DNA of 32,000 nucleotides from Verrucomicrobiota bacterium (GTDB lineage: Bacteria; Verrucomicrobiota; Verrucomicrobiia; Chthoniobacterales; UBA6821), in assembly GCA_008932965.1 (NCBI GenBank), contig WBXG01000006.1:1-32000 (forward strand), in the 5' to 3' direction. The translations under genes were made by a program, and so were the position numbers. Numbering within the stretch: position 1 is the first letter of the stretch; every line of letters starts with the position of its first letter. This document shows, in pieces, positions 10,890 through 31,020 of the stretch. The notes below the pieces were generated by a model. It saw only the letters and a program-made list of their open reading frames with translations, was not told the DNA's origin and did not search any database.

Positions 10890-10951
10890 AACCCTGATAT
10901 TTCATACTCATCGCAGCTTCCTCGTCACGATGAGTATGGAATATTCGGGTT
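10890..10951 (-). mobile_element. MITE-like element, 62-bp minimal copy (termini only)
   Basis: The sequence is aaccctgatatttcatactcatcg cagcttcctcg tcacgatgagtatggaatattcgggtt. It lies about 60 bp upstream of the rpsO start. Confidence 0.75.
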
Positions 10952-13404: not shown

Positions 13405-13672
13405 ACCCGGATATTTCATACTGAATCGTCATGAGGCGCTGCGAATCCTGATGCAGACACCACCAGCGGTCGGGAGACCGCGGGGGAGACTGCCCTGGCT
13501 TTAAGGGGGCAGCACTGAAAGGGCGAGACGAGCGGGAGCAAGCGAGTCAACGAAGGTGATGGATTGTGACGACGGCTGTATGTTTCATACTGCCCGAGGA
13601 GCAATTCGAAGGTCAAGCAGTATCAATCAGGTGTTCGCAAGCCGCAGCAGAATCGGTATGAAATAGGCGGGT
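13405..13672 (+). mobile_element. MITE-like element, full 268-bp copy
   Basis: It is flanked by TA at 13403-13404 and 13673-13674, with termini acccggatatttcatactg ... ggtatgaaataggcgggt. It contains the 95-bp GC-rich internal module. The right-hand TA is part of the TAA stop of the minus-strand lipoprotein gene. Confidence 0.9.
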
Positions 13673-14496
13673 TAAGATTCTGGTGGTTCCAATAGCCTAA
13701 TTTTGGGATCGATCCAGCGGCTATCAGGAAAAATCAGGGGAGGAGTGGTAGTAACGAGGGTTGCTTTTTCTAAAACAAACTCAGGATAAAAAGAATCACT
13801 TGCTGGTTCATACACTTTCTCGCCGGAGAAGTGCCCCTCAAGTTGATACTCATAATTATTATCAGCTCCTATTTGATTTTTTTTTCGGTCAGGAGCTAGC
13901 ATTTTTTGCTCGTTGAACATGACTAATTGAGACCCTTTCCAAGGTTTGCTGGGCTCTTTTACCCAGCCCCACATATGATAGTCGACTTTATAAAAACGAC
14001 GTCCTATGAAGTAGTGACCTGGTGTTTCATTGGCAATGGCCCTCTTAATGGCAGTACGATCAGAGGCATTTTGCTCAACGATGGTTGTGCACCCAGAAAG
14101 AAATAGAAAAAAACCTAACAGTATCCCTAGCCCGAATATTTCATACTGATCGTGACGAGGAGGCCGCGAAAGCTGATGGGGCACCACCGGCGGTCGGGAG
14201 ACCGCGGGGGAGACTGCCCTGGCTTTAAGGGGGCAGCACTGAAAGGGCGAGACGAGCGGGAGCAAGCGAGTCAACGCAGACACATATTTTGACGCAGGGC
14301 TGTGTGTGTACACACTGCCCGAGGAAGACTTCGAGATCAACACAGCATCCATCTGACTTCCCGGTCTCCGCAGTAGATCAGAATGAAATATTTGGGCTAA
14401 AGCAACGAGGAATGGCTGTTGAAAGAATATTCTATCTTTAGAAATTCTTTTTTCATCATGATGACTCTGAGATCGCTCTCGTGGATGATCAGGCAT
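13672..14496 (-). CDS. Hypothetical lipoprotein with a MITE inserted in frame in its signal peptide (effective start uncertain)
   Basis: The ORF is open over 274 codons. A lipobox, LFLSGC, is followed by a 146-aa mature part. Codons 33-122 are the element (ALAQIFHSDLLRRPGSQMDAV...YEIFGL). Confidence 0.6.
   Translation of the reverse strand: MPDHPRERSQSHHDEKRISKDRIFFQQPFLVALAQIFHSDLLRRPGSQMDAVLISKSSSGSVYTHSPASKYVSALTRLLPLVSPFQCCPLKARAVSPAVSRPPVVPHQLSRPPRHDQYEIFGLGILLGFFLFLSGCTTIVEQNASDRTAIKRAIANETPGHYFIGRRFYKVDYHMWGWVKEPSKPWKGSQLVMFNEQKMLAPDRKKNQIGADNNYEYQLEGHFSGEKVYEPASDSFYPEFVLEKATLVTTTPPLIFPDSRWIDPKIRLLEPPES
14130..14397 (+). mobile_element. MITE-like element, full 268-bp copy, intragenic
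   Basis: It is flanked by TA at 14128-14129 and 14398-14399, with termini gcccgaatatttcatactgatc ... gatcagaatgaaatatttgggc. The internal GC-rich module lies at 14182-14276. Confidence 0.92.
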
Positions 14497-14628
14497 TTGA
14501 GAAAATTACTGAGGTGATTCCCCAATGACAAGAGCAACATTTTCTATTAAAAAGTTGCATCACAAAGGTTCGGCTGATATGCGTTCTAACTTAAGTTCAA
14601 AAGCCGTCATTTCACTCTAAAATCAAAT

Positions 14629-15129
14629 ATGTCCATGGAACGTTTTCAAAACTTATTAAAAGATCTTGGGTCAAGCGTTGGGTTGCCTGATTTGAAACCG
14701 AGTGATGATGGTCTTTGCTCTCTTCGCTTTGATGATCGAGTTACTATTGATTTAGAGAGTAATGATGAGACAGGAGCCATGATTTTCTCAAGTATTGTGG
14801 CAACATTATTACCCTATCAAACTGAAAAATTATACCCTGAATTACTTGAAGCCAATCTCCTGTGGGCGGGAACTGGTGGGGCTACTCTAGGTGTTGATCC
14901 TGCAACATTAAGTGTCTTTATGTGCTACCAGGAAAAAATTGAAGGAATGGAATTTCTACGATTTCAAGAGTTGCTTAAAGGCTTCAGCGATGTTGCCCTC
15001 TTTTGGAACAAGCGTCTTCAACAAGGAGAAGAGTCAGAGACGAGCCAAACACCATCTGAATCGGTCTCCCTAACTGAGGTCACTCCTCCTGCTCCTTCTG
15101 CTGCTGGATCGGTGGGGACTTATGCATAG
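14629..15129 (+). CDS. CesT/YbjN-like protein (type III secretion chaperone-like fold)
   Basis: The pattern F..LLKDLG..VGLPDLKPSDDGLCSLRFDD...IDLE......M.FSS.V..LP.....LY.ELLEANLLW..TGGATLGVD is typical of this family. The tail is acidic and Ser-rich. Confidence 0.5.
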   Translation: MSMERFQNLLKDLGSSVGLPDLKPSDDGLCSLRFDDRVTIDLESNDETGAMIFSSIVATLLPYQTEKLYPELLEANLLWAGTGGATLGVDPATLSVFMCYQEKIEGMEFLRFQELLKGFSDVALFWNKRLQQGEESETSQTPSESVSLTEVTPPAPSAAGSVGTYA

Positions 15130-15211
15130 CATTGATCCAGATTCTTCTGAAAAACTCTCCTTACCCGCTCTGAAAGAGGAACCAAGATTCCCTTCTCCAT
15201 TAAAGTTAAAA

Positions 15212-16027
15212 ATGCCTCCGATTCCTATTGGAACAAAATTATTAGGAGGATCTTCGCCTCTCTTTATTTTAGGCCCTTGTGTGATTGAGGGTGAAAAAGC
15301 CTTGATGCATGCAGCAAAAAAAATCTACTCGATCTGTGATGATCTAGGGGTCGATTTTATTTTTAAAGCCTCCTATGATAAAGCAAATCGGACCTCAGCC
15401 ACTTCCTATCGTGGTATGGGGCCTCGTGAAGGATGTGCGATGCTGGCCGAAGTTGGAGCAGCTATTGGGGTTCCTGTTACAACTGATATTCATACTGTAG
15501 AAGAAGTATTAATAGCGGCTGAATTCATTGACGTATTACAAATCCCTGCTTTTCTCTGTCGTCAGACCGATTTGATCGTAGCTGCTGCTAAGACTGGACG
15601 TGTTGTTAATGTCAAAAAGGGACAATTTCTTGCCCCATGGGATCTCAAGCCTATTGCAGAAAAACTGACACGTGCAGGGTGTGAAAAATTCTTTTTTACC
15701 GAACGAGGAACGACCTTTGGATATAACAACCTTGTGGCTGATATGCGTTCTCTTTATTGGATTCGAGAAGGTGGTTATCATGTTGTTTTTGATGCCACAC
15801 ACTCGGTCCAACGTCCCGGCGGAGGGGGAGATCATACTACTGGCGATGGAATTTTAGCGCCCGTACTAGCAAGGGCGGCGATGGCGGCTGGTGTTGATGG
15901 AATTTTTTTAGAAACTCATGAAGATCCCACCAAAGCCTTTTCTGATGGTCCCAATCAAATTTCTCATGCCACTCTTCCTAAGGTGCTCCGCTCTCTCTTA
16001 GCAATTCATAGGGCAATTTATGAGTGA
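15212..16027 (+). CDS. kdsA: 3-deoxy-8-phosphooctulonate (KDO8P) synthase
   Basis: It shows PLFILGPCVIE, FKASYDKANRTS, QIPAFLCRQTDL, KKGQF and DATHSVQ motifs. I chose the start at 15212 by comparison with KdsA length. The ATG at 15122 (overlapping the upstream stop) is an alternative. Confidence 0.9.
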   Translation: MPPIPIGTKLLGGSSPLFILGPCVIEGEKALMHAAKKIYSICDDLGVDFIFKASYDKANRTSATSYRGMGPREGCAMLAEVGAAIGVPVTTDIHTVEEVLIAAEFIDVLQIPAFLCRQTDLIVAAAKTGRVVNVKKGQFLAPWDLKPIAEKLTRAGCEKFFFTERGTTFGYNNLVADMRSLYWIREGGYHVVFDATHSVQRPGGGGDHTTGDGILAPVLARAAMAAGVDGIFLETHEDPTKAFSDGPNQISHATLPKVLRSLLAIHRAIYE

Positions 16028-16300
16028 CCCTCATTCACATTCTGAAAAACTTTAGATCTTCTCTTATTTGTTTGGTACCTCATAACACTTCAGCATCAAG
16101 GATCTGCGCTCATTGCGCAGACATCGGTTGAAAAAATTGAAATTCGAGAAAAGAGAAGTATTCTATAGTGTATTACGTTGAAAAAGGGATGATAGAAACG
16201 CTGAAAAATTTTCTTAGGACAAGGCCAAAGATCGAAGCACTATCGAAAGATAGCCAATGATCTGAGAGCGTACCCCTTTCAATTGAATCCATACTCTAAT

Positions 16301-16792
16301 ATGACCTTGTTTTTTTTAAGAGCCTCTATTTTTTTTATAATATCGGCCTTGGCCATCGGGGCACAAGCACCTTCGACCATACAAGAAGAGCCCCATTCTC
16401 AAAAAGATACTACTCCTCCTATCGATCTCCCAGCTCCTCTAGGAGAGGATATGAAAGGGATTTTCATCCCTCAATATGATGCTGAAGGGAATCCTACGAT
16501 GAACTTTATTGCAGAAAAAGCGCGCAAAATTAGTGAACAAGAACTCGAGGTTGATTCGCTAAACATTCAGTTTTTTGAACGAGATGGGAAGGATGTGACC
16601 GTATTTGTACCGCATGGAATATTTCATTTAGACACCAAAATTCTTTCTACCGATAGTGAGGTTACTATTAAACGTGAAGATTTTGAGATGGTGGGAGAAT
16701 CCGCTGCCTTTAATACTTCAACGCGATATGGCACTATGAAAGGACATGTGCACACAGAAATTCGCAATGGAATACCCGCTAAGACACTTTAA
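16301..16792 (+). CDS. lptC: LptC-like LPS export protein
   Basis: It has an N-terminal anchor followed by an OstA-like beta-jellyroll pattern, and sits immediately upstream of lptA-lptB. The start is the ATG at 16301 or the TTG at 16283. Confidence 0.55.
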   Translation: MTLFFLRASIFFIISALAIGAQAPSTIQEEPHSQKDTTPPIDLPAPLGEDMKGIFIPQYDAEGNPTMNFIAEKARKISEQELEVDSLNIQFFERDGKDVTVFVPHGIFHLDTKILSTDSEVTIKREDFEMVGESAAFNTSTRYGTMKGHVHTEIRNGIPAKTL

Positions 16793-16804
16793 ATAGGAGC
16801 AATA

Positions 16805-17383
16805 ATGATACGCTTTTTATTTTTTCGTAGGGGTCTTTTTGTAATTCTGCTGATATGCTTTGTTCATTGGAGCATGGGTGCAACAGCCTTGGAGGGAACA
16901 TCACCTCCTAGTGATCCCTTAAAACTAGGAATTGGGAGTAAGCCCCGACCCAAGAATGCACGAACTATTATCGATGCAGAAGAGGGAGCATGGTTTGATG
17001 ATTTAACCAATACCATTGAATTTAATGGGCATGTGGTTGTGCACGATCCGCAGTTTATCCTCTATTGCGACAAGTTGCATGTTGTGATGAATAAAAATCG
17101 CCAAGGCCTTCAGCAGGTTATCGCCACAGGCAATGTCATTATTGAACAAGAAAATACGAATGATCAAGGGGAGGCTATCAAATCCGTAGCACGTGCTGGC
17201 GAGGCTCTTTATGATCCCGCGACTGGCGATATGACACTGAAAATAGGACCTCAGATTCAACAAGGTCGAAGCTATCAAGTAGCAACAGAAGAGGGCACAG
17301 TGATGATTCTCAATAATAAGGGAACTTCAAGGACCATTGGAAAAAGTCGGGCTATGGTCGTCGACCCTGGCCAAACACCCTAG
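16805..17383 (+). CDS. lptA: LptA/OstA-family LPS transport periplasmic protein
   Basis: It has a signal peptide and an OstA N-terminal-like domain (F.G.V.V......L.CD.L.V......ATGNV.I) and lies upstream of lptB. Confidence 0.7.
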   Translation: MIRFLFFRRGLFVILLICFVHWSMGATALEGTSPPSDPLKLGIGSKPRPKNARTIIDAEEGAWFDDLTNTIEFNGHVVVHDPQFILYCDKLHVVMNKNRQGLQQVIATGNVIIEQENTNDQGEAIKSVARAGEALYDPATGDMTLKIGPQIQQGRSYQVATEEGTVMILNNKGTSRTIGKSRAMVVDPGQTP

Positions 17384-17413
17384 CCTGGATATTTCTTACT
17401 GAAATATCTGGGC
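17383..17413. repeat. Minimal 31-bp hairpin derivative of the MITE termini
   Basis: The sequence is gcctggatatttc ttact gaaatatctgggc. The TA at 17381-17382 belongs to the lptA TAG stop. It forms a 13-bp stem if two G-U pairs are allowed. Confidence 0.65.
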
Positions 17414-17470
17414 TCAACAATTCTTTACACTTTACTCAATACTCATTACCCGTTATTGGGTGTGAGCCCT

Positions 17471-18241
17471 ATGTCTTCTCATCATCCCTCTCCATTTTCT
17501 CCAGTAACATCGCACGATGAATCTATTTTAAGAACCGATGAGCTGGTAAAAATTTATAATGGGCGTTCCGTTGTCAATGGAGTGAACATTCATGTTCGGC
17601 CTGGTGAAATTGTTGGATTGTTAGGGCCTAATGGAGCAGGTAAAACGACTACATTTTATATGATCGTTGGACTCGTACGCCCAGATGGTGGTCGTACCTT
17701 CTTTAATGGGGTAGATGTCACTCATGAACCGATGTACAAACGAGCTCGTCTTGGTATGGGATACCTACCTCAAGAAGAGTCGATTTTTAGAAAGATGACG
17801 GTAGAGGAAAATATTCTCTCTATTTTACAAACAACCTCTCTGAATCAACAACAGCAACGCGATCGTTGTGATGAATTGCTAACCCGTTTTGGGATTGATC
17901 ATTTGGCTAAAAATGAGGCACTCACCTTGAGCGGTGGAGAAAAACGCCGTTTGACCATTGCTCGTTCCTTAGTCATGAATCCTTCGCTCTTGATGCTCGA
18001 TGAACCCTTTAGCGGTGTTGACCCTATTGCTGTTTATGATGTACAGCAGGTTATTTCAGATCTACGTGATAGCGGCTTAGCAATTATTATTACAGATCAT
18101 AATGTGCGAGAGACCTTGGCAATTACTGATCGTGCTTATCTTATTTTTGAAGGGCGTGTTGAAAGTCAGGGAGACAAGGATTTCTTACTTCATGATCCAA
18201 TTAGCCGTAAGCTTTATTTGGGAGAATCTTTTTCCATGTAA
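17471..18241 (+). CDS. lptB: LPS export ABC transporter ATP-binding protein
   Basis: It has Walker A (GPNGAGKTT), the ABC signature (LSGGEKRRL), Walker B (LLMLDEPF) and an LptB-like C-terminus. Confidence 0.9.
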   Translation: MSSHHPSPFSPVTSHDESILRTDELVKIYNGRSVVNGVNIHVRPGEIVGLLGPNGAGKTTTFYMIVGLVRPDGGRTFFNGVDVTHEPMYKRARLGMGYLPQEESIFRKMTVEENILSILQTTSLNQQQQRDRCDELLTRFGIDHLAKNEALTLSGGEKRRLTIARSLVMNPSLLMLDEPFSGVDPIAVYDVQQVISDLRDSGLAIIITDHNVRETLAITDRAYLIFEGRVESQGDKDFLLHDPISRKLYLGESFSM

Positions 18242-18354
18242 TTTTTAGACTTTTTTTTGTAATCTGATGATTCTTCTAATAAATTCCAAATCCTTTGCAT
18301 CCCCTAAGGTGCCCAGCTTGTAATCCAGAATTTAAAAAAAGTTCAATTCCAAAC

Positions 18355-19299
18355 ATGCACAAAAATATTGTCAAAAAGCTTAGTGTTGCTGAATTTTTTA
18401 CCCGTTATCAAAAAGAACTCCAATTAGAGCAGCTCAACAAAGAATTAGGTGAGGAATCTTACATTAAGGAGCCTACCGTTAACCGGCCTGGGTTAGCACT
18501 TGCCGGATTTTTCAGGTATTTTCCATTTAAGCGTCTTCAGGTGGCTGGATATGCTGAGTTAAGTTATTTAAGGCATCTGCCAGTGGAAGAATGTGAGATG
18601 CGATTGAGAGAAATTTTTACACTTCGCATCCCGGCTCTTGTTATTTCTCGCGGGTGCACGCTTTCCTCACAATTATTAAAACTTGCAGAAGAGTTTAAGG
18701 TACCTGTTCTTCGTACCCCGCTCATTACAATGGAATTTATTAATGCGGCAACCATTGCTCTAGAAGAGGCATTTGCTCCGGTTACAACAGAATTTGGAAG
18801 CATGGTTGACATTCTTGGAATTGGTGTCCTCATCAAGGGTCAAACAGGCATTGGTAAAAGTGAATGTGTCTTAGGGTTGATAGAACGTGGGTACAGTCTT
18901 GTGAGTGATGATATCACACGTTTTCGAAATTTTGAAGGTCGTGAATTATTTGGAACAAGTAGTGATGTGACACGATTTCATATGGAAATTCGCGGCATTG
19001 GTATTATTAATATTCCTGCCATTTTCGGTATCGGAGCTGTTCGTCCAGAAAAGAGACTTGACCTCATTGTTACCTTAAAAGATTGGAATGAAGTAGAGCA
19101 TATTGAACGAGTGGGGCTCGACTTAGAATTTTTAACTATTCTAGGTATTGATATCCCTCATCTCACTATTCCTGTGAGGAATGGACGTGATGTTTCTCGT
19201 TTAGTAGAAGTTGCAGCACTAGATCAAAAACTCAAATCTATGGGCTATCATGCTGCTCTGGAATTCAATAATCGACTGCTTCAAGTCATGAAGGGGTAA
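18355..19299 (+). CDS. hprK: HPr(Ser) kinase/phosphorylase
   Basis: It carries GQTGIGKSECVLGLIERGYSLVSDD (P-loop), EIRGIGIINI and the expected C-terminal region. Starting at MHKNIV gives 314 aa. Confidence 0.88.
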   Translation: MHKNIVKKLSVAEFFTRYQKELQLEQLNKELGEESYIKEPTVNRPGLALAGFFRYFPFKRLQVAGYAELSYLRHLPVEECEMRLREIFTLRIPALVISRGCTLSSQLLKLAEEFKVPVLRTPLITMEFINAATIALEEAFAPVTTEFGSMVDILGIGVLIKGQTGIGKSECVLGLIERGYSLVSDDITRFRNFEGRELFGTSSDVTRFHMEIRGIGIINIPAIFGIGAVRPEKRLDLIVTLKDWNEVEHIERVGLDLEFLTILGIDIPHLTIPVRNGRDVSRLVEVAALDQKLKSMGYHAALEFNNRLLQVMKG

Positions 19300-19306
19300 A
19301 ATTAAT

Positions 19307-19618
19307 ATGATGGATCCTAGTGATGATAAGAAAAATTTTAATGATCCATTCTGTGTGATCAAGGATGTCACTATTAAAAATAGTAACGGTTTGCATGCTC
19401 GGCCTGCAGCACTCTTTGTGAAGACCGCTAATCAATTTCGTGTAGAAATTTCAGTAGAAAAAGAGGGAGAGCTTATCAATGGTAAAAGCATCATGGGATT
19501 GATGATGCTTGCTGCAGCAAAAGGGTCACAAATACGTCTGATTGCAAAAGGGGAAGAAGCAGTTGCTGCTATTGCTGCCCTTGAAGCGTTGATCATGAAT
19601 TGCTTTGGTGAAGTGTAG
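19307..19618 (+). CDS. ptsH: Phosphocarrier protein HPr
   Basis: It has the NGLHARPA active-site His motif and a GKSIMGLM Ser-phosphorylation-site region. Confidence 0.88.
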   Translation: MMDPSDDKKNFNDPFCVIKDVTIKNSNGLHARPAALFVKTANQFRVEISVEKEGELINGKSIMGLMMLAAAKGSQIRLIAKGEEAVAAIAALEALIMNCFGEV

Positions 19619-19646
19619 CAATAAGCTTTTGCAGCTGCTTTTTACT

Positions 19647-19812
19647 CACCCTAATCGTGACGAGGAGGCCGCGAAGGCTGATGGGGTAAGGCAGGCGAGC
19701 ATTTTGATGCAGGGCTGTATGTGTACATACTGCCCAAATCAAAATGGGAGTCTAACGCAGCATCCATCTGACTTCGCGGTTTCCGTAGTAGATCAGTATG
19801 AAATATCCGGAT
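19647..19812 (+). mobile_element. MITE-like element, about 170-bp copy with a degenerate left terminus
   Basis: The right end is gatcagtatgaaatatccggat followed by TA (19813-19814). The interior is 99% identical to the reverse complement of 1-100. It starts about 30 bp after the ptsH stop. Track ORFs 19605..19964 and 19651..19887 are translations of it. Confidence 0.85.
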
Positions 19813-19982
19813 TAACTGAAACAGGTCAAAAAAAAGACAACCCGCCACACCCAAAGGTGCGACGGGTTGTTGTTCCCCCCAGAACATTCTTTCAATTGAT
19901 AGAAAAGTATAGTATAGGTAATTCTTTGCAATCCTTTTTTCTCAATAGAGGAAATATTCACTAGCACCTCCTCTCATTTTCT

Positions 19983-21545
19983 ATGCTTTCTGTTATTCGT
20001 AAAAATCAGCATTTTTTAACGTTTTTTATTGTTCTTTTTACAATTGTTTCTTTTATCTGGCTTTATAATAGAACGAATTTATCTCAAATCGGTGTTAATG
20101 ATGTCGCCACCGTTTACGGGCATGTGATCCAAAAGTCAGAATGTGAACGTGAGATTCGTGACTATCGTCTTGCAGTTGCCCTGGGGTTAACTGAGTTCGT
20201 GAATGATCTCGGTGGTTTTGCAGAAAATGAAGAAGTGGCCCTCACCTCTTTTGTTTTTAATACGTTAGTGATTCAACATGAAGCCCCAAAATTAAGCATT
20301 GTACCAACCGATGAAAACATCGCAACGGTGATTCAATCATTTCCTATGTTCCAGACAGATGGATCTTTTGACAGTAGTAAGTATGCCCTTTTTTTGCAGG
20401 AGCAACTTATTCCACGTGGCTTTACAGAGCACCACTTAGAAGAAGTAGTACGTGATTCTCTCTATTTTAAAAAATTATATCAACTCATCACTGCACCAGT
20501 AATTGTGAGTGAAGCTCAGGTACGAGAAGCAGCCCAGATCTATCAACCGGTGAGCCTGCAGGTTCTTAGTTTTGATCAAGATCATTATTTTAAGAATCTC
20601 GGGGGGGAGGCTCTAACCCCTGCAGAAAAAAAAGAATATTACGAAAAAAATAAATCACTCTTTGTCAATGAGGAGGAAAGAGCGGTTGATTATCTCTGTT
20701 TTACGCTCCCTTTGAATCAACAAAATTTACAAGGAAAGGACCGTGTTAAAGCCCTGCAGGCGCTTTCTGAGACTGCTTCTGGTTTTAAACAACAGACCCA
20801 AGAAGAACAACAGAACGGAAAAGATTTTGAAAAAAGTGCTGCAAAATATGGTTTTCACGTTGTTAAAACTGCCACTTTTAAGAAAAAAGAATCGGAATCT
20901 ACTACTCCAGCAAAAACAAAGCTACCTCCTCCGGAGCTGATCTCCACTGCGTTCAAGCTTACTAATGTGGGAGCTATTTCTGAGATCATTCAAAGTGGAG
21001 ATCATTTTTATATTCTTTCTTTAAGACAACTCATTCCTGCAAGACCATTAACCTTGGAAGAAGCTGATTCGAAAATTGAGAAAATATTGCGAGACCAAAA
21101 AGCTTTTCAAGCAGTTCAGGAGGCTTCTAGTAATGCGATTAAAAGTTTAAATCAAGCCATGAAAGCTGGAAAAACATTTGCTCAAGCAAGTACTGAACTT
21201 GGACTCAAGCCAGTCATCATTTCAGGAAGTGTTTCCCCTGCATCCCCAAAGCGTTCTTTGCATGAGCAGCAATATCTTGCATCAACATTATCCCTAAAAG
21301 AAGGTGAGACGAGTCAAGTGAACCATGCCGAGTGGGGAGACTTTATTGTTACCTTACAACGAAGGGAGCCCCTCAGTGATCATGATTGGCAAATACATCA
21401 TGCGAGTATCGAAGAGGAATTATTAGAGCAAGGGCGGCATCTGCTTTTTTTTGAATGGCTGCGCCAGGCCCGAGCAGATGCTAAGATTAGTATGATTGAT
21501 GGACACCATCGCCGCAGTCTTTTCTCCTCTATTTTCGGAAAATAA
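19983..21545 (+). CDS. PpiD/SurA-like membrane-anchored periplasmic chaperone
   Basis: It has an N-terminal TM anchor, a SurA-N-like region and a degenerate parvulin-like segment. The product is 520 aa. Confidence 0.55.
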   Translation: MLSVIRKNQHFLTFFIVLFTIVSFIWLYNRTNLSQIGVNDVATVYGHVIQKSECEREIRDYRLAVALGLTEFVNDLGGFAENEEVALTSFVFNTLVIQHEAPKLSIVPTDENIATVIQSFPMFQTDGSFDSSKYALFLQEQLIPRGFTEHHLEEVVRDSLYFKKLYQLITAPVIVSEAQVREAAQIYQPVSLQVLSFDQDHYFKNLGGEALTPAEKKEYYEKNKSLFVNEEERAVDYLCFTLPLNQQNLQGKDRVKALQALSETASGFKQQTQEEQQNGKDFEKSAAKYGFHVVKTATFKKKESESTTPAKTKLPPPELISTAFKLTNVGAISEIIQSGDHFYILSLRQLIPARPLTLEEADSKIEKILRDQKAFQAVQEASSNAIKSLNQAMKAGKTFAQASTELGLKPVIISGSVSPASPKRSLHEQQYLASTLSLKEGETSQVNHAEWGDFIVTLQRREPLSDHDWQIHHASIEEELLEQGRHLLFFEWLRQARADAKISMIDGHHRRSLFSSIFGK

Positions 21546-21611
21546 GATTCCTTAACTATCACGATGGTTTGACTCTGCTGGAGAACAGATCATGGTTCTA
21601 AAGTATATTTA

Positions 21612-21627
21612 TCCGGATATTTCATAT
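21612..21627. repeat. Solo terminal repeat remnant of the MITE-like element
   Basis: The sequence tccggatatttcatat, preceded by TA, overlaps the ATG (21626) of the TPR ORF. Confidence 0.45.
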
Positions 21628-22009
21628 GAAGGTGCATCTTAATTCAGACTCTCATCATTCAGAGCTCTTTGATGAAGCAACAGGTGCTCTTGCTATTGGA
21701 GATCTTGAAGGTGCCGTCACCCTTTATCAGCAATGTGTCGACTTAGAGCCTGAATTTTTTGAAGGATGGCATGCCTTAGGAATGGCCTTGATGAAGATAG
21801 GTCGCTACTCGGATGCGATCCAAGCAGGATTACGAGCAACGGAGCTTGCTCCTAACGATCAACTGGCATGGTCAAGCCTTTCTCTTTTTTATGTTCGTAA
21901 TCACCAAATTCCCGAGGCAGAAGCAGCAGGGGTGAAAGCAAAAATTCTTTCATGGGGAGGAAAGATTGCACTTGGTGCTACGCAGAGAAGCCCGGATATT
22001 TCATCATGA
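21626..22009 (+). CDS. TPR-repeat protein
   Basis: The 127-aa product has TPR-like repeats (A..Y...L...P.....W..LG.AL...G.Y..A). The last 7 codons and the stop are encoded by the element at 21990-22076. Confidence 0.55.
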   Translation: MKVHLNSDSHHSELFDEATGALAIGDLEGAVTLYQQCVDLEPEFFEGWHALGMALMKIGRYSDAIQAGLRATELAPNDQLAWSSLSLFYVRNHQIPEAEAAGVKAKILSWGGKIALGATQRSPDISS

Positions 22010-22076
22010 AGTCTCATGCGGCGCTGCTGAGTCATATCGACGCTGCATTGTCACGATAAGCATGAAATATCTGGGA
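21990..22076. mobile_element. MITE-like element, 87-bp degenerate copy
   Basis: The termini are gcccggatatttcatcatg ... gcatgaaatatctggga. Confidence 0.65.
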
Positions 22077-22169
22077 TCGAAAAATTGGAAAATCCTAGAA
22101 TTCTCCTCTTATTACGTTTAGCTTCCTTCTCACAGTTTAATTTTCATTACCAATTTTCACTCTATCATC

Positions 22170-24035
22170 GTGAGCTATCGTGTCTTTGCCAGAAAATATC
22201 GCCCCCAACGATTCCAGGATGTCGTTGGTCAGCGGACTATTATCCAAACGCTTCAAAATGCCATTAGCTCTCAAAAGCTTGCGCAAGCTTATCTCTTTGT
22301 TGGACCGCGTGGGGTTGGAAAAACCTCTATTGCCCGTATTTTTGCCAAAGCCCTCAACTGTTACCAAGGAGTAACAATCGATCCGTGTGGGTGTTGTTCT
22401 GCTTGTTTGGAAATTGCAGAAGGTCATAGCATGGATGTTCTGGAAATCGATGGAGCTAGTAATAATAGCGTCGAGAGCATCCGGACGCTTCGAGAGAATG
22501 CCGCCTTTGCACCTGTGCGAGGGCCTTACAAGATTTATCTCATTGATGAGGTACATATGCTCACCACAGCTGCTTTTAATGCTCTTCTTAAGACGTTGGA
22601 GGAACCACCAGAACATGTGAAATTTATTTTTGCAACAACGGAGGCACAAAAACTTCCCTCCACCATTACGAGTCGATGCCAACGCTTTGACTTAAGTCGT
22701 CTCACCGAAAAAGAGATTGCTAATCATCTTCTTTTGATTGCACAAAAAGAGGAAATCGCGTTGTCAGCAGAGGCTGCCTTAACAGTCGCTCACGGAGCTG
22801 ATGGAGCGTTGCGGGATGCAGAATCGATGTTGGATCAGCTCGTGGCTTTTTGCGGCAAAACAATTTCGCAGCACGATGTGCAACACATTTTTGGATTTAC
22901 TCCCAGTGATCTTGTTCATCAGCTAGGTAAAGCAATCCTTACGTTAGATGTCCATGCAGCATTGACATTAATTCAAGACCAGAGTGATGGAGGAAAGGAT
23001 CTCTCTCGACTATTAAGTGATCTCATCTATTTTTTTCGCGATCTTCTCATTGAAACAGTCCATCCCTCCATGGAGCAGACCTGTTTTTCGATGCTTCGAG
23101 ATTATCTCTCTTCAGAAAAGTTATTAACCCTTCTTGAGGAATTGGGAAAAGCTGAAGAACGCTTTAGATGGGCTACGAATAAGAAATTACAGTTTGATGT
23201 CCTTGCTATAAAAGCGATCCATCTTCTTCAAGAGGTAAGCCTCACAGAAGTTCTCGAGGTTTTAACAACTCTCCGTGAAGGAAAGGCCCCTCCTGAAAAA
23301 TTCAGGAAGCCAGTAGCAACATTGGTAAGAACCGAAGTGGACAAGAGTAAAAAAAATCATCAATCCCCCCTTGTCTCTTCTTCTCCAAAATTACTGGAAA
23401 GCGAGCCCCCTAGTCCCAATGATCCCAAGCCCCTAGCAATCTCCCCGGAGGAAAAAAGCGATCTCAGCCTCTCCTCCTCTGCCGTGCTACCAATGACTCC
23501 TTTAGACGAGGTGATCATTCCCATCAATAGAGAGTGCTGTAACGTGGATGCTGTAGTAACTCCTCTTATCAATGACCCTTGGGGTGGCATTGCCACCGCT
23601 CTTGCCTTGGAATCACCCTTAAAATTTGGATGGCTCACTACTGGACGTTTTGTAGAACGAAAGAATCACCAGATGGTTATCGAGTTTCCCTCTTCTTATG
23701 AGGCCCAAACTGAAACCCTTTTTTGGTCCCAGGCACGAAAAAAAATTCAAGAGCGACTCACTCAAAATTTAGGAGAGAAAGTAGAATTAGTGACTCGTTT
23801 TACTGGAGAAGCCCTCGCCGAGGAAGTGTTGGATGAGGAGACCGTAGAACTAATGCCTTCTCAGGAGGCCCCCAAAGATAGTTCTCCTCAATCTGCTAAA
23901 AAAACAAAACCATCTCTATCTCAACAATCCCATACCATTCCAACCCTGACCCAGGAGGAGCTAGATCATTTCAAAAATGATCCACTCATTAAAAAAGCGT
24001 TGGAGCTTTTTGAAGCTGAGATTGTGAAGAGCTAG
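22170..24035 (+). CDS. dnaX: DNA polymerase III subunit gamma/tau
   Basis: It shows RKYRPQRF.DVVGQ, GPRGVGKTS, a CxxCxxC zinc module, a DEVHML box and SRCQRF. The start is GTG. Confidence 0.92.
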   Translation: MSYRVFARKYRPQRFQDVVGQRTIIQTLQNAISSQKLAQAYLFVGPRGVGKTSIARIFAKALNCYQGVTIDPCGCCSACLEIAEGHSMDVLEIDGASNNSVESIRTLRENAAFAPVRGPYKIYLIDEVHMLTTAAFNALLKTLEEPPEHVKFIFATTEAQKLPSTITSRCQRFDLSRLTEKEIANHLLLIAQKEEIALSAEAALTVAHGADGALRDAESMLDQLVAFCGKTISQHDVQHIFGFTPSDLVHQLGKAILTLDVHAALTLIQDQSDGGKDLSRLLSDLIYFFRDLLIETVHPSMEQTCFSMLRDYLSSEKLLTLLEELGKAEERFRWATNKKLQFDVLAIKAIHLLQEVSLTEVLEVLTTLREGKAPPEKFRKPVATLVRTEVDKSKKNHQSPLVSSSPKLLESEPPSPNDPKPLAISPEEKSDLSLSSSAVLPMTPLDEVIIPINRECCNVDAVVTPLINDPWGGIATALALESPLKFGWLTTGRFVERKNHQMVIEFPSSYEAQTETLFWSQARKKIQERLTQNLGEKVELVTRFTGEALAEEVLDEETVELMPSQEAPKDSSPQSAKKTKPSLSQQSHTIPTLTQEELDHFKNDPLIKKALELFEAEIVKS

Positions 24036-24103
24036 CCTACATACTGCTCCTTTTGATTCTCGATTCTTAGGTTCCATAGAATGATTGGATCTCTTTTTTT
24101 CTT

Positions 24104-27100
24104 GTGAGTACTTCTCCACAACCTCTCTTTTTTGATTGGAAGAACCCCTGGCTACCGCCTCTTGCTACCTATTTGCTGCATACGTGGAATCAAGGAACAA
24201 GCGCTTCTCAAGAGGATCTTTCTTCAACTGTAGTTGTTCTTCCTGGTCGTCGTGCGGGAAGGAGGCTTTTAGAGTTATTGGCATTGGAAGCAGAGAAAGA
24301 GAAATGGAATTTGAATCCTCCTTCTATTGTGACACTACGCGAGGCGGTAACCCTACTGTTGAAACCAAGTGAAAAAACTCTTCCCGAAGCGAGTGGCGTA
24401 TTGCAGCGATTTGCCTGGCGTGAGGCTTTTCGAATGCTTCCGAAGTATCATCGAGATCATATTCAACCTTTTTCTAAGAAGGTCATTCCTCCAAGAAGTA
24501 GTGAGGTGTTGATTGGAATCATAGAATCACTTGCAGAAGAGATCGGAAGTAAGGGGCTTGATTTTCATACTGTGGCAGTTCGAGTGGGAGAGGTTTTTCC
24601 AGAATCTGCAGAACGAGAGCAACCTCGCTGGGAAGCACTTGCTTATCTTCAAAAAACCTACCGCAAGATGATGGCTTCATGGGGATATTCTGATCCTGCC
24701 GACTTTCTACGTTCTTCTCTCACCCATGGAGAAGTGTCCAAGGGTGTTCGAGTACTCGTAGCAGGAGTAGTGGAGGCTCCTCCACTTTTTGAATCTTTTT
24801 TTGAAAAAATAAAGCCCGCAGTGATTATTATTGCACCTAAGGAACATGCGGCAGGCTTTACCAATCATGGATTACTTGTGAAAGAATATTGGTTAGAGCA
24901 TCCACCAGTGATTCAAGATACAGAGCTCCTTCCATGCGAACGAAATGAAGATCAAGCAAAGGAGGTGGTTCGATTAATAACCCCTTTTAAGGATAGGAGA
25001 TCCGAGGTAACTGTTGCTCTCCCAGATTCCTCAACACTCCCCTTACTACAAACTCGGTTGGCACATGTAGGAGTTACAACTCGATGGGCAGGGGGGCTTC
25101 CTTTTCGTGGAGGACGTTTGTATCAACTCTTAAGAGCCATTGCTCATTTTTTAGATCATCACAACTATTCAGGACCAACAATAGCAGCTCTCAGTGCTCT
25201 TGTGCGCCATCCTGATATTTATCCCCATTGCATGGCACCAGAGGCATTTTTAAAAAAACTTGATCTTTTAGAACGTGAGCATCTCCCGCTCTTTTTAGAT
25301 AAGGGAAGTCTTGCTTCTTTCAAAAAAAATGAAGACCTCCTTCTCTGGATAGATGAACTTGAAACCCTCATTGGAATTGGGTCAGAGCCAGTATCGCTAG
25401 AGGAGGGAGCATCGAAATTACGAACTCTTTTGCAACATCTTTTCGGAAAACGGAAGGTACGGGGGAATACTTTTGAGGGGCATTATTTTTTAGGATGCCT
25501 CGAGGAATGCTTACACCTGCTAGATGAAATCGAAGAGATGGGTCCTCATATTTCTGAGCATTTTTCAATGAGTGCCTTTCTAGAAAATCTTCTGGAACTT
25601 CTTAAAGAAAAAAATATCCCAGAACAAGAAGAACCAGAAGCACTCGAATTACTTGGATGGCTAGAGTTGCAGGCTGATGATGCTCCCTATTGCATCATCA
25701 CTTCATGCCACGAAGGATCTTTTCCACAGAGTTTAACATCCAATCCTTTTTTGTCTCAGGGGCTTCGCTCACGTTTGGGTCTTAGTGAGGAGAGTTTGTT
25801 GCTCGCACGTGATCATTATCTTCTTCAAAGTATTATGGCTTCCCGCCAGGTTATCTTGATAGCACCTCGCTACAATGGTCGTGGAGAACCTGCTCGTCCT
25901 AGCCGTCTTTTAATGCTCGGATTGACTTTAGAGGAGTTGCCGCAACGGGTCCTCCAATTAACACAACCTCTCTTAGCCCCGATATTTCATACTGATCGTG
26001 ACGAAGAGACTGCGAAGGCTAATGGAGCGGGAGCGAGCGAGTCAACGCAGGCACGTATTTTGAAGCAGGGCTGTAGGAGTCTGACGCAGCATCCATCTGC
26101 CTTCTCGACCTCCGCAGGTGATCGGTATGAAATATCTGGGCTAAAAGAAGAAAAAATAAAGGAGCGAGCCCTCCCTCATCATGCTTCTCACTTTCATGCA
26201 CGACCTCTCGGTACAGAAAAGGTCACCTGTGTGACAGTGACAGGACTCCGGACCTATTTACAATCACCGCGACTTTTTTATCTCCAGCATGTCCTGCGAC
26301 TTCATGAAGTGGAGGAGGCTCCCCTAGAAATGAATGCTGGTCATTTTGGACGACTCATTCATGAGGTCTTAGGAGCTTTTGGGATGGAAGAAAAAAATAT
26401 CCCGTCAACCGATGCACGAACTTTATCAGAGTGGCTTCGAAGAAAACTTTTTTCTATAGCAGAGCACTATTTTGCTCCAGGACCCTCTCTTCCGATTCAA
26501 TTACAATTGGAGGCCATGGCGGAGACCTTAGATGGCTTTGCACAAGCTCAAGTAGCCCATTACCAGGAGGGATGGAGAATCATTGCAGCTGAAAACAACC
26601 ATTACTCTTCATCCCCAGTGATTGAGGAAAAAATGGCACTCGATGAGGGAGGCTCTCTTCTGTTACAGGGTCGCATTGATCGTATCGATTGGAATTACAA
26701 GCTGAGTCGCTGGATGATTATCGATTATAAAACACGGCACGATCAGGAATGGAGCAATGCCACCCCTGATAGAGAACATTTTCAAAAAAAAGGAGAAAAA
26801 ATTCTTTGGAAAGATCTTCAGCTTCCACTGTATTTAAGACTCTCTGCTCACTGGAAGGCGATTCAGGAATCAGGGCTTCCTGCTCCCACTATTGAGAATA
26901 CCGATCTGTGCTACTTTCAGTTACCCATAGAAACGGAGCAAGCAGGAGTGAGTGAACCATTTGATCCTAAGATGATCCTGCCTGGATGGAATGAAGCACG
27001 TCGTATTATGAAAGCGATCGTAGATGGAAATTTTGATGCACTTGGAACAATCGAAGCCATACGTATGCCTACCCTTGCTGCTCTCTGTGGAATTTCAATA

Positions 27101-27160
27101 CTAGAACCTAAAAAAAATGGGGTGATTCGCTCGGGGAGTGATTCAGAAACTATTGAGTGA
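24104..27160 (+). CDS. addB: AddB-like PD-(D/E)XK nuclease subunit carrying an in-frame MITE
   Basis: The 1018-aa product has a degenerate helicase-like N-terminal half and a C-terminal RecB-type nuclease motif, GRIDRID...IIDYKT. It overlaps the downstream UvrD/AddA-like gene by 4 nt (GTGA). Confidence 0.7.
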   Translation: MSTSPQPLFFDWKNPWLPPLATYLLHTWNQGTSASQEDLSSTVVVLPGRRAGRRLLELLALEAEKEKWNLNPPSIVTLREAVTLLLKPSEKTLPEASGVLQRFAWREAFRMLPKYHRDHIQPFSKKVIPPRSSEVLIGIIESLAEEIGSKGLDFHTVAVRVGEVFPESAEREQPRWEALAYLQKTYRKMMASWGYSDPADFLRSSLTHGEVSKGVRVLVAGVVEAPPLFESFFEKIKPAVIIIAPKEHAAGFTNHGLLVKEYWLEHPPVIQDTELLPCERNEDQAKEVVRLITPFKDRRSEVTVALPDSSTLPLLQTRLAHVGVTTRWAGGLPFRGGRLYQLLRAIAHFLDHHNYSGPTIAALSALVRHPDIYPHCMAPEAFLKKLDLLEREHLPLFLDKGSLASFKKNEDLLLWIDELETLIGIGSEPVSLEEGASKLRTLLQHLFGKRKVRGNTFEGHYFLGCLEECLHLLDEIEEMGPHISEHFSMSAFLENLLELLKEKNIPEQEEPEALELLGWLELQADDAPYCIITSCHEGSFPQSLTSNPFLSQGLRSRLGLSEESLLLARDHYLLQSIMASRQVILIAPRYNGRGEPARPSRLLMLGLTLEELPQRVLQLTQPLLAPIFHTDRDEETAKANGAGASESTQARILKQGCRSLTQHPSAFSTSAGDRYEISGLKEEKIKERALPHHASHFHARPLGTEKVTCVTVTGLRTYLQSPRLFYLQHVLRLHEVEEAPLEMNAGHFGRLIHEVLGAFGMEEKNIPSTDARTLSEWLRRKLFSIAEHYFAPGPSLPIQLQLEAMAETLDGFAQAQVAHYQEGWRIIAAENNHYSSSPVIEEKMALDEGGSLLLQGRIDRIDWNYKLSRWMIIDYKTRHDQEWSNATPDREHFQKKGEKILWKDLQLPLYLRLSAHWKAIQESGLPAPTIENTDLCYFQLPIETEQAGVSEPFDPKMILPGWNEARRIMKAIVDGNFDALGTIEAIRMPTLAALCGISILEPKKNGVIRSGSDSETIE
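25976..26141 (+). mobile_element. MITE-like element, 166-bp copy, intragenic (addB-like)
   Basis: It is flanked by TA at 25974-25975 and 26142-26143, with termini gccccgatatttcatactgatc ... gatcggtatgaaatatctgggc. It is translated in frame as APIFHTDRDEETAKANG...DRYEISGL. Confidence 0.92.
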
Positions 27161-30100
27161 TTATGCCTCTTTTTATTCAACGAGCTTCAGCGGGATCAGG
27201 TAAAACAGAGCAACTTGCACGCCGTTATTTGCAGATTCTTTTGAATAAAGATCTCATGGGCTATGAGGTCGATCCAGTTACAATTGTAGCAGCAACGTTT
27301 ACCCGGGAGGCTGCAGGAGAAATTTTAAATCGTATTTTGAAAATACTTTCGACCGCATGTCTGGATAGATCGGTCTGCCAAAGGATTGTCGAAGAGACAC
27401 CCCTCCCCGTCCCATCACCAATCGAATGCCAACGATTACTCCGACGACTCATGGAGCGCATCGATGAGCTTCGTATTGGAACCATCGATTCCCTTTTCGC
27501 TCAGCAAGCACGTGCTTTTGTATTGGATCTTGGAATAGCCCCTCATTGGGAAATTGCAGATAGTCTGACGGTCCATAAACTGGCCCAAAGAACCTTGCTT
27601 CATCTCTTGAAGTTAGATCCGCTCTTTGCACAAGATTGGAAGATTCTCCACCACTTTCAACGATCCCTTTCCTTGGTGAAAAAAGGGGCTCTTCTTCTTG
27701 AAAAAAATCGTTTTGTCGCACGTCATGAGCTACTCGAAACAACTCCAGAAAAAAAATCTCCTCCACGAAGGGTTTCAAGAGAAGACCAAACATCGATTCA
27801 TCACTTTTTTTCCTCATTTCATATTCCTCTTACTGGTCAGGGAAAACCGAATGGGCATTGGATTGCTGCTATAAAAAAAATAGAAGAGGCTTTTTCTCAA
27901 CCGCTCTATCTCAAGGATGTATTAGACCATAGTCCTCTTTTCTCTCAACTACTTCATGAGGAACCCCGTTTTTATGGAAAAGAAATACCACCAGAATTCA
28001 TTTATTTTTTTTCTCCGTTAATAGAAGCTTCACAAGCTGAACAACAACGCTTGGCCTTACTTCGAGAAGGAGCATTGCATCGGCTTGCACACGATTATCA
28101 CTATCTCCGAAGTGACTATTCCTTTGACGAAGGTCGCTACACTTTTCAAGAAATTGAAGAAATAGTAAGTCTCTCCTCCCAGAAAATATCTAAGGAGGAA
28201 ATCGAATTTCAGATGGACCTCTCTACGGAGCATCTCTTAATTGATGAATATCAGGATACCAGCGAGCGTCAGCATGCCTTTCTCTCTCCTTTGATTGGAG
28301 ATGTGCTCGCAAAGGGAGGGGTTGCCTTTGTGGTTGGAGATGTGAAGCAGGGAATTTATGGATGGCGTGGAGGAAAGCGGCATCTTCTAGGTTCTTTAGA
28401 AAAAGACTACGAATCCTATCTTCAAAAAACCAAGCTTCACCACACAAGTTATCGTTCTAGCCCTGCCATTCTAGCAGCAGTGAATCACGTTTTTGAGGCA
28501 CTCAAAAATTCAGATGTTGTTGAAGGAATGAACGCTGGAGAGCCATTTAAAGAAGCTGCAGCACGCTGGTCGCTTGAATTTGAACCCCAGGTATCAGCTA
28601 CTTCTGTTGTTGGCTTAAAAGGGAGTGTCACGCTTCACAAAATTCCAGTGGCTCCAGGAGAGCTTCAGAATGAGATCATGGAATTGGTTATTCAAAAAGT
28701 AGTGGAGCTAGTAGTAGCTCATCGACGAGAAGATCCATTACGTGAAATTGCAATTCTTGTGAGACGCACGAAATTTATTCCTTCTCTACTTTTGAACTTA
28801 CGAGAGAGTGGAATATTAGCAAGTGGAGAGGGAGGCAATCCACTCGCTGATACGTTGGCTGTTGAGGTGCTCCTCTCCCTACTCTCATGGATGGAGCATC
28901 CAGGAAATTCTGCAGCCTATGAACATGTACACTCATCCCCATTAGGAGATCTGTTAAAAGAACAGGGAGCTTCCCCCTCCACTCAAGGGGCTGCACTACG
29001 TGAACTACTAGTGGATCGGGGTTATGCAACATGCCTGCGTGCCTGGGCCACACGACCGGTTTTTCAAGAGGCATGCAGTGATTATGAAAAGGAACGCCTG
29101 GAACAATTCATAGCAATGGCTTCCCGCTTTGAATTGCTTGGTGGTGGGGCTCCCTCAGATCTTGTGGCACGGGCACGTGAGGAGCGCGTGGAGAGCCCTT
29201 TAAGTCGTGGAGTGAGGGTGCTTAGCATGCATGCTGCCAAGGGGCTCGAGTTTGAAAGTGTTGTTCTCATGGATCTCGACACCTCTATTTTTGGTGGGAG
29301 TGCCCATGCAATGCGTGTTCAAACAACAGATGATGGAAAATTCTTTATTCAGAATAATCGTGAAATGACCTTGCTACAAGGGAGAGAGCATTTATTAAAA
29401 ATCCATCAAGAGGAGCAATGGGAGGAGGCATTGAGCCTCCTTTATGTGGCGATGACACGAGCGATTTGCTTTTTAGATATTGTGCTCATGGACGATGTGA
29501 ACCGGAAAATTCCAAAAAAAAGCATGGCAGGATGGCTACGTGTCTCTGGGCTTGAAGACCATCAACATGATGGTCTTTCGTTACGCGAGCAAAGAACAAA
29601 AACAGCTCTAGCCCCCATATTTCATACCGATCTACTACGGAAGCCGGGAAGTCAGATGGATGCTGCGTTGAGCTCGAAGTCTTCCTCGGGCAGTAGGGAC
29701 TCATACAGCCCTGCGTCAAAATATGTGTCTGCGTTGACTTGCTCGCTCCCGCTCGTCTCGCCCTTTCAGGGCTGCCCCCTTAAAGCCAGGGCAGTCTCCA
29801 CCGCGGTCTCCCGACCGCCGGTGGTGCCCCATCAGCTTTCGCAGCCTCCTCTTCACGATCAGAATAAAATATGCGGGCTAGAAAGTAATAGTGATAAGAA
29901 AAAGCCGTGTTCGTTCGAGGTAACCTCACTTCAAAGGTCTCCACTATTGCTGAAGCGAACCCCCTCCAAAGAAAATCAAAAAGGGCTTCATGCGTTATCT
30001 GACTATTTTTATGATCGGAAAGCCCGTTCCTATGGAATCGTCCAGCATCGTGCACTAGCTCAGATAGAATGGATTAACAGGACTGCATCTCATCCATTGA

Positions 30101-30894: not shown

Positions 30895-31020
30895 GCCTAA
30901 ATATTTTATACTGATCGTGACGAGGCGGCCGTGAAGACTGATGGGGCAAGACTTCGAGATCAACGCAGTAATGAGGAGCTTTCCACAAGCCGTAATAGAT
31001 TTAGTGTGAAATATCCGGGT
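30895..31020 (+). mobile_element. MITE-like element, 126-bp copy
   Basis: It is flanked by TA at 30893-30894 and 31021-31022, with termini gcctaaatattttatactgatcgtgacgagg ... gtgtgaaatatccgggt. Confidence 0.88.

Follow-up and report, generated by a model that had tools for sequence, protein, structure and literature searches.

Short palindromic repeats that bring an open reading frame (ORF) with them and lie in frame within host genes have been described from several bacteria. [quoted passage not shown] As related in PMC10969869 and PMC2229807, the RPEs of Ogata et al. (2000, 2002) are short palindromes that occur both in frame in housekeeping genes and between genes; their target-site duplication is listed as uncertain and their terminal inverted repeat (TIR) as 12 bp (PMC2229807, Table 1). 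The 107-bp form of the Correia element has ORFs and is often intragenic, whereas the 155-bp form, which carries an IHF site, is closed by stops in every frame and lies almost exclusively between genes (PMC2229807). Here we describe a palindromic MITE family in a 32-kb window, positions 1 to 32,000 of contig WBXG01000006.1 from a Verrucomicrobiota bacterium (assembly GCA_008932965.1), three copies of which lie within ORFs: an addA-like gene, an addB-like gene and a lipoprotein gene. A sequence-only reading of this window had noted that these copies keep their host ORFs open, and had ascribed this either to a purifying filter acting on random insertions or to an element with a consensus adapted for tolerance within coding sequence. 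Our analyses lead us to conclude, with high confidence, that this is a non-autonomous family inserting, probably nearly at random, at YTAR sites (Y, pyrimidine; R, purine), on which selection against copies that truncate proteins then acts.

The window MITE resembles the RPEs in forming a single long hairpin with an ORF, in occurring both in frame in conserved genes and between genes, and in being tolerated rather than clearly useful. As a palindrome in frame in genes for conserved proteins it works like an RPE, which is a likeness of behavior and not of family membership. It differs in its host, freshwater metagenome-assembled genomes (MAGs) of Verrucomicrobiota/Chthoniobacterales rather than Rickettsia, and in having TIRs of ~22-24 bp, a clear YTAR duplication and a frame rule that can be read from stops in the TIRs; these are differences of description. 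With the Correia (NEMIS) elements it has in common TIRs of ~24 bp, a terminal TA, a target duplication, size variants that differ by internal segments, and a frame content that predicts location. The Correia host is Neisseria, however, and our 268-bp form, although the longer, retains one open orientation; this likeness is functional and drawn by description only. The ERIC/IRU and YPAL elements (Delihas 2007, as cited in PMC2229807) contribute in some cases to signal peptides, and differ in their 7-bp TIRs and their hosts, with no single-frame rule reported in that citing account. Our literature search found no description of the window family or of Chthoniobacterales MITEs. The principle is already known from RPE and Correia elements; the family and its Verrucomicrobiota host are new, and the details that distinguish it are TIRs that themselves impose a single-frame rule, an interior that is translatable both ways, and the docking of copies on stop codons.

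The window, with a GC content of ~43%, holds housekeeping genes (proS, pnp, dnaX, a gene for a SurA-like chaperone, and addB/addA-like genes), and the top matches to its AddA were in MAGs labelled Chthoniobacterales or Verrucomicrobia. A search allowing up to three mismatches found 17 occurrences of the TIR motif in the window, compared with 0.00 expected from shuffled sequences. All copies were assigned to one palindromic family with at least 15 copies or fragments within the 32 kb: three of 268 bp (starting at 13405, 14130 and 29611), others of 174, 167, 166, 126, 87, 60 and 32 bp, and, in addition, truncated copies and solo TIR ends (Table 1). The copies listed in the sequence-only reading were all present, but its list was not complete, as further copies were found at 1-119, 122-152, 6818-6892, 7690-7711, 10891-10950, 17383-17414, ~19652-19812 and 21990-22076. 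In keeping with a MITE, the elements are small (32-436 bp, mode 178 bp), multicopy and devoid of a transposase gene, the only ORFs within them being read-through frames of 56-90 codons. A 21-nt TIR consensus was found at both ends of 130 paired copies; the element TIRs themselves are ~22-24 bp long and close to CCCGGATATTTCATACTGATC. The 178-bp consensus was predicted to fold into a single hairpin (-103 kcal/mol, z=-10.6). An Rfam scan of the window matched no family.

Reexamination of the sequence confirmed the coordinates, lengths and TA flanks of the three copies within ORFs, 14130-14397 (268 bp), 29611-29878 (268 bp) and 25976-26141 (166 bp), as well as the lengths of the intergenic copies with matching flanks (126, 174 and 268 bp, plus TA) and of the 167-bp copy at 8058-8224, which lacks the right-hand TA. 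Six-frame translation agreed that the 268-bp form is closed in all three frames of the orientation beginning IFHTDRDEE (hereafter RDEE), by a TAA in CTT TAA, a TGA at 14290-14292 and a TGA within the TIR. The opposite orientation (LLR) had been called fully open; this is true of its frame 1, but frames 2 and 3 are closed, which leaves one open frame of six. Both intragenic 268-bp copies are in the open orientation relative to their host frames. The 166-bp copy in addB is in the other orientation, as had been reported, and is open there in frame 1 of the RDEE orientation only. The same frame is used in all three hosts, with entry at the first base of the element and the TA completing a Leu codon as its second and third bases (TTA, CTA and TTA), so that each copy has a single open frame of six and its host uses exactly that frame.

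The basis for this regularity lies in the TIRs. At both ends of the element two of the three frames are closed, either by the TA+R at the junction or by the TGA in CATACTGATC. For a ribosome reading inward with the TA at codon positions 1-2, the next base, R, makes TAA or TAG at the junction; with the T in third position the sequence reads A-RC CCG GAT ATT TCA TAC TGA, which ends in a stop; and with the TA at positions 2-3 it is RCC CGG ATA TTT CAT ACT GAT, which is open. Mirror-image stops shut the same two frames in the outward direction. Because the TIR stops close two frames, read-through requires the TA to be at codon positions 2-3 (CTA or TTA for Leu, followed by a purine). The entry frame and the exit frame coincide only if the element plus its TA has a length divisible by three, and therefore copies of 166, 178 and 268 bp qualify (+168, +180 and +270 bp). 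The interior adds a further constraint in the 268-bp class, whose extra segment of ~90 bp bears the TAA that closes one orientation. In the common 178-bp subfamilies the interior is open in the compatible frame on both strands.

We tested these predictions by a census in loci of related bacteria. The sample combined at least 90 TIR loci, obtained by scanning species-representative genomes, with the window itself and loci from further searches, in all ~0.6 Mb of Chthoniobacterales loci. An exact look-up of the window AddB found no record. Among the matches listed by the scan, the element was abundant in four Chthoniobacterales/'Spartobacteria' lake MAGs (Kiruna_bin-02438, Tobar2m-G38, Deming_bin.170 and SMAG_U8253), and the matches listed in other taxa were single chance matches. 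Each element was removed in silico with one TA and an ORF spanning the resulting junction was sought, an approach that finds intact and broken hosts. Copies were scored as deep-intragenic if the restored ORF extended for 35 codons or more to either side and comprised 120 or more altogether. The sampled loci held 130 TIR-paired elements, seven of which were nested in other copies.

The outcome was that predicted by the sequence-only reading. Deep-intragenic copies made up 17/123 sites. The share was 65.4% among 7462 YTAR control sites drawn from the same sequences once the elements had been removed (Fisher p=1e-31), and the deficit relative to the availability of target sites was approximately sevenfold. 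All 17 deep-intragenic copies were in the xTA phase, as opposed to 56% of the controls (binomial p=5.9e-5) and 58% in the verified window genes. Their lengths were likewise all 1 mod 3, and read-through was retained in 16 of the 17. The phase and depletion results were stable across thresholds from 35/120 to 75/200; at a threshold of 20/80, 26 of 34 sites were in the xTA phase and the other eight were all near gene ends. Had intragenic copies occupied closed frames at the rate expected by chance, the idea of a filter would have failed, and no deep closed-frame gene break was found in the sampled loci; closed-frame insertions were confined to the final 24-32 codons of long ORFs. Pfam searches confirmed the restored ORFs as genuine genes, identifying AsnB, GlnD, RnpA, PyrF, LMW-PTP, AroD, OprB, a PMT-type glycosyltransferase and an exo/endonuclease.

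Three census matches (L067_2527, L091_6243 and L019_5507) were rejected as artefacts, the flanking "ORF" being the open frame of a neighboring or enclosing element, which was gone after joint excision. Searches of protein collections with the insert peptide yielded little other than short ORFs lying on intergenic copies and failed to recover proteins known to bear the insert, such as P0001, so they had no value as a census. In the public MAG annotations, dozens of "hypothetical proteins" of 50-140 residues (P0121-P0190) were the open frame of intergenic copies and are artefacts.

The 178-bp copies fall into four subfamilies that are more than 22% diverged, and every consensus is exactly 178 bp with the compatible frame open both ways. 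Other copies of 176-185 bp were mostly a 179-bp variant with a one-base insertion or members of a stop-rich subfamily of 180-181 bp. Deep-intragenic sites accounted for 13/51 copies in the 178-bp class and for 0/37 of the non-178 copies in the 176-185-bp range (p=4.8e-4). Both orientations were used by the hosts of the 178-bp class (8 RDEE and 9 LLR). The proposal that orientation determines which of the longer copies survive within genes was borne out in direction, in that three elements of the 268/370-bp type were all in the open orientation, but the number of independent events is small. The third of these is a 370-bp element in L088, a putative member of the 268-bp class. A metagenome scan for the segment specific to the 268-bp form found three loci only, all intergenic, and the orientation sample was not enlarged by it.

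A second class of sites was evident in the census. At 23/123 sites (19%) the TA supplied positions 1-2 of the codon that terminates an ORF 100 codons or more in length, compared with 3.0% of the controls. Three copies in the window are docked on stop codons in this way, those of addA, the lipoprotein gene and the ORF at 16805-17383. Such an insertion is silent for the protein because the duplication keeps the stop intact. In a different arrangement, the TPR gene of the window (21626-22009) has lost the TAG stop that is kept by its L001 orthologue and reads 6-7 codons into an element as far as the TGA of the TIR; the TIR stop serves as a back-stop terminator for this gene.

In the case of AddA, an orthologue, P0002 (85-87% identical), was without the 89-residue block, which is present in P0001 (98% identical) and also in the independent metagenome contig L004. 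A more distant AddA, P0007, bears the same element family at another site that is empty in its close relative, P0006. The AlphaFold model of the window AddA had a mean pLDDT (the model's confidence score) of 82 overall, and residues 820-928, which comprise the insert and the linker between helicase and nuclease, were modeled with pLDDT <50 and no secondary structure. Between the window and L004, which are 99% identical, 9/268 nt were substituted in the insert and 25/3011 nt in the rest of addA (p=0.0012). The insert has therefore diverged fourfold faster than the rest of the gene, and eight of its nine changed codons were nonsynonymous. The addA insert thus acts as an unconstrained spacer, a neutral passenger peptide. 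In another Chthoniobacterales MAG, the AddA P0005 has an unrelated Ala/Ser/Pro-rich insert of ~56 residues near the same linker (alignment columns ~850-905), which was absent from all other AddA homologues aligned and may represent a second, different in-frame repeat family.

At the TTA codon used by the window copy, the addB gene of L001 (~80-86% nucleotide identity) has an element of a different subfamily (8808-8985) that is oppositely oriented, and both are in frame. Either two insertions independently hit one of a very small number of tolerated sites, or one copy was replaced through recombination or gene conversion with another. In a third genome, L082, an element was found at another place in addB. 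The AddB of L082, a Kiruna MAG, has ~40 extra residues that are not element-like at restored residues ~640-710, in the linker occupied in the window and L001, and variability seems to be a general property of this linker.

The lipoprotein gene is the weakest of the three host cases, yet is consistent with the others. Its homologues across the Verrucomicrobiota (65-79% identity, 150-175 residues) have a signal peptide of ~20 residues and are insert-free, whereas the signal peptide in the window is interrupted (…FLVAL, the insert, then GILLGFFLFLSGC). The ORF 3' of the insert is intact and conserved and has no start codon after the insert, so translation must either cross the element or start at the in-frame ATG of the element. 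The earlier description of this copy as intragenic was correct in that it lies in an ORF and in an open frame, but the translation start is uncertain and the signal peptide is split. Different in-frame elements were found in the N-terminal region of the same gene in three other genomes. Counted with the window, N-terminal in-frame elements thus occur in at least four genomes and at three sites (L094, 4761-4938; P0194 and P0196); P0194 and P0196 share a site and have opposite element orientations. These inserts would add 60-90 residues before or inside the signal peptide. For the intragenic copies as a group, the open frames suggest that the inserts are translated. Elsewhere in the sample, a PriA-like ORF in L080 (~384 onward) seems to start within a solo TIR (TRIFNADCEE…), and rnpA in L063 (252-429) contains one full element plus part of another, in frame.

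Analyses of the flanking sequences defined the target. A TA was present on both sides of 103/128 copies; among copies with TA on both sides, the base before the TA was Y in 100/102 and the base after it R in 102/102, and positions outside YTAR carried at most 0.16 bits, with no wider motif. The left and right flanks agreed at Y in 88/102 copies, at R in 87/102 and at all four bases in 78/102. The TA flanks noted earlier were therefore correct, but the duplicated target is better described as YTAR on the basis of the four-base agreement. The duplication is then probably YTAR and the element proper CCC…GGG (modal length 176 bp), with the net gain unchanged.

The family has been mobile, as indicated by the empty addA site in an orthologue, the seven nested copies, and an extra copy in L004. 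The latter is a 180-bp element of the stop-rich subfamily (~4651-4832), located at the TA flanking the counterpart of the window copy at 30895-31020, in a background that is 99% identical; it points to a transposition event in the recent past and to a tendency of new copies to go into the ends of existing ones. As the elements encode no transposase, they must be mobilized in trans. Insertion at YTAR with a duplication of 2-4 bp is a property of the IS5 family of insertion sequences (IS), and was found here. IS5 duplicates 4-bp YTAR (PMC5009759) and IS711 of Brucella duplicates the TA within YTAR (PMC2266754), so the consensus and the ambiguity between 2 and 4 bp are common to these elements and the window MITE. 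By analogy, a transposase of the IS5-family type is the most likely mobilizer; the family assignment is a lead drawn from the target. We had initially assigned the elements to the IS630 type from their TA flanks, and downgraded this on the four-base flank concordance. The TA is indeed duplicated, as in IS630/Tc1-mariner elements, but the neighboring Y and R agree in ~86% of copies, which a pure TA duplication does not predict, and an IS630/Tc1-type origin is the less likely of the two.

Together, the architecture of the elements, the pattern in the census, the filled and empty sites and the recent activity are direct observations, and they are consistent with the following course of events. 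Insertion would probably be near-random among YTAR sites, and selection would then remove copies that truncate proteins. The survivors would be copies that are intergenic, on TAA/TAG stop codons, within the last ~30 codons of a gene, or read through in frame in permissive linkers and termini, with read-through copies adding a fast-evolving and presumably disordered peptide of 56-90 residues (L-[A/T]RIFHTD…YEI[S/C/F]G-L). The sevenfold deficit in genes, the 17/17 phase and the 0/37 versus 13/51 distribution between subfamilies support the purifying filter put forward in the sequence-only reading.

Several points weigh against this interpretation. The census drew on 8-kb blocks of at least four related MAGs and on metagenome contigs, and so represents relatives and not the complete genome from which the window comes; repeats interrupt the assembly of MAGs; and pairing of TIRs with at most five mismatches each favors younger, well-preserved copies. 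The AsnB-like gene in L067 has a stop in its deep insert, from a single CAG-to-TAG change in the TIR, and the lipoprotein insert, being within the signal peptide, is hard to square with normal export. The orientation filter rests on three independent events, two of them in the window. With regard to the mechanism of insertion, the very recent L004 copy has TTAA on the left and TTAG on the right, so that the outer bases are not always identical (2 versus 4 bp duplicated), and no TIR pair 0.6-3.5 kb apart in the ~0.6 Mb of sampled loci encloses a transposase-like ORF.

Other explanations were considered for the same observations. The distribution might be set at insertion, by a transposase with a preference for intergenic DNA, stop codons and the xTA phase. 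The strong YTAR specificity, the bias of IS5 toward non-coding DNA in E. coli mutation-accumulation lines (PMC5009759), and the use of a single TA by two relatives, seen for addB and for the lipoprotein gene, which might mark hot spots, are all compatible with this. The controls were YTAR-matched, however, so the motif explains neither the sevenfold deficit nor the 17/17 phase, the bases outside YTAR are nearly uninformative, and a DNA motif would be blind to the length mod 3 and the internal stops that separate intragenic from non-intragenic subfamilies; we regard targeting as improbable. We think it very improbable that the intragenic copies lie outside functional proteins, in pseudogenes, gene-caller artefacts or chimeric assemblies. 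Many small "hypothetical proteins" in the MAGs are indeed ORFs on intergenic copies, and the L067 stop and the disrupted lipoprotein signal peptide also fit this idea, but the host ORFs are open for hundreds of codons on both sides, have Pfam matches across the junction and align over their full length with orthologues that lack the insert, the independent contig L004 contains the addA insert as well, and unselected ORFs would give random frames and orientations, not 17/17. The least credible proposal, in our estimation, is that the inserted peptide is a functional module, such as a regulatory or interaction domain, that benefits the host protein. This idea has been raised in the RPE literature (PMC10969869), and the repeated occupation of the same AddB linker and lipoprotein N-terminus in different genomes could be taken in its favor. 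An insert that evolves four times faster than its host with almost all changes nonsynonymous, that is predicted to be disordered, that is accepted in either orientation although the two peptides are unrelated, and that is absent in close relatives does not have the characteristics of such a module.

The remaining proposal, that the elements themselves have been adapted by lineage selection for translation transparency, would complement the filter rather than exclude it. We consider it possible but somewhat doubtful, and the same applies to the traits in which it would be expressed: TIRs open in one frame, a conserved gain of +180 bp, an interior free of stops on both strands, and a YTAR duplication that spares stop and Leu codons. 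The four 178-bp consensuses, despite more than 22% divergence, are all exactly 178 bp and open in both orientations, while their other four frames carry 0-5 internal stops. The stop depletion of the consensuses was compared with shuffled sequences, as had been suggested, and dinucleotide-preserving shuffles of the interior were open both ways in only 3-5% of trials per consensus. Non-genic 178-bp copies were still mostly open (30/38 and 29/38), and in a permutation test new stops in their compatible frames numbered 7 compared with 11.7 expected (P=0.048) and 8 compared with 11.3 (P=0.14), with the other frames at or above expectation. This test was substituted for counts of stop-creating substitutions, which had indicated strong depletion in one compatible frame and were withdrawn because they ignored stops requiring two substitutions. 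Against adaptation, modules are shared among the mosaic subfamilies and the element is palindromic, which makes the eight open frames interdependent; the permutation test gave a weak signal that is uncorrected for shared ancestry; and frame-incompetent subfamilies (179 bp, and the stop-rich 180-181 bp) have spread to at least 37 copies, one of them inserted very recently. Openness is thus not needed for proliferation. The shuffles and the permutation test are suggestive of a consensus adapted to coding sequence, the alternative offered in the sequence-only reading, and do not prove it. If this adaptation were real, it would have approximately doubled the fraction of the genome in which a new copy is harmless, and would provide quantitative evidence of translatability as an adaptive trait in a bacterial transposon.

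The family represents a clean, rule-based case of a selfish repeat living inside essential genes, in which the survival of a copy is predictable from ~24 bp of terminal sequence and the length mod 3, a prediction that holds in the census. It extends the phenomenon known from RPE and Correia elements to the Verrucomicrobiota, and adds a second neutral niche, the exact position on a stop codon that is preserved by the duplication. There are also practical consequences, as the copies give rise to many false "hypothetical proteins" in MAG annotations, make annotated genes too long, and break assemblies.

Table 1. MITE copies and host genes in the window, by position (a dot stands for no strand assigned).
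Feature	Position	Strand	Remarks
Right portion of a copy truncated by the window edge (1-119), TA, and solo right end of a second copy (122-152)	1..152	.	
Partial copy, left TIR and ~70 bp, no right TIR	6818..6892	.	
Solo left TIR, 4 mismatches to consensus	7690..7711	.	
167-bp intergenic copy downstream of pnp	8058..8224	.	Right flank TC instead of TA
60-bp copy, two TIRs only, degenerate flanks	10891..10950	.	
268-bp intergenic copy, docked on stop codon of lipoprotein gene	13405..13672	.	
Conserved Verrucomicrobiota lipoprotein gene, no Pfam family	13672..14496	-	TAA stop 13672-13674 = TA flank + terminal base of adjoining MITE copy
268-bp copy in lipoprotein ORF	14130..14397	-	Frame 1, LLR orientation; splits signal peptide
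32-bp remnant docked on TAG stop (17381-17383) of ORF 16805-17383	17383..17414	.	
5'-truncated copy between HPr gene and SurA-like gene	19652..19812	.	Left boundary approximate
87-bp copy at 3' end of TPR gene 21626-22009	21990..22076	.	
addB-like host gene, PD-(D/E)XK nuclease subunit	24104..27160	+	
166-bp copy in addB	25976..26141	+	Frame 1, RDEE orientation; +56 codons in linker preceding PD-(D/E)XK nuclease domain
addA-like host gene, UvrD helicase + nuclease	27157..30441	+	TAA stop 30439-30441 = TA flank + first base of downstream MITE copy
268-bp copy in addA	29611..29878	+	Frame 1, LLR orientation; +90 codons between helicase and nuclease domains
174-bp intergenic copy, docked on addA stop codon	30441..30614	.	
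126-bp intergenic copy	30895..31020	.	L004 (99% identical) has a further 180-bp element at the right-hand TA

At the left edge of the window, the copy at 1-119 appears to have been inserted into the copy whose right end is at 122-152. A TIR-like 21-mer within proS (1454-1474), also in frame, was rejected as a decayed copy, as there was no second TIR; its peptide, ALIFRTTHTREIDT…EEF, is one that we take to be a conserved segment of ProRS. Downstream of proS there are two 55-nt direct repeats (1777-1831 and 1842-1896), which are 85% identical and 65 nt apart. They have no relation to the MITE, and each has its own inverted repeat (GGGCCGCTG…CAGCGGCCC).

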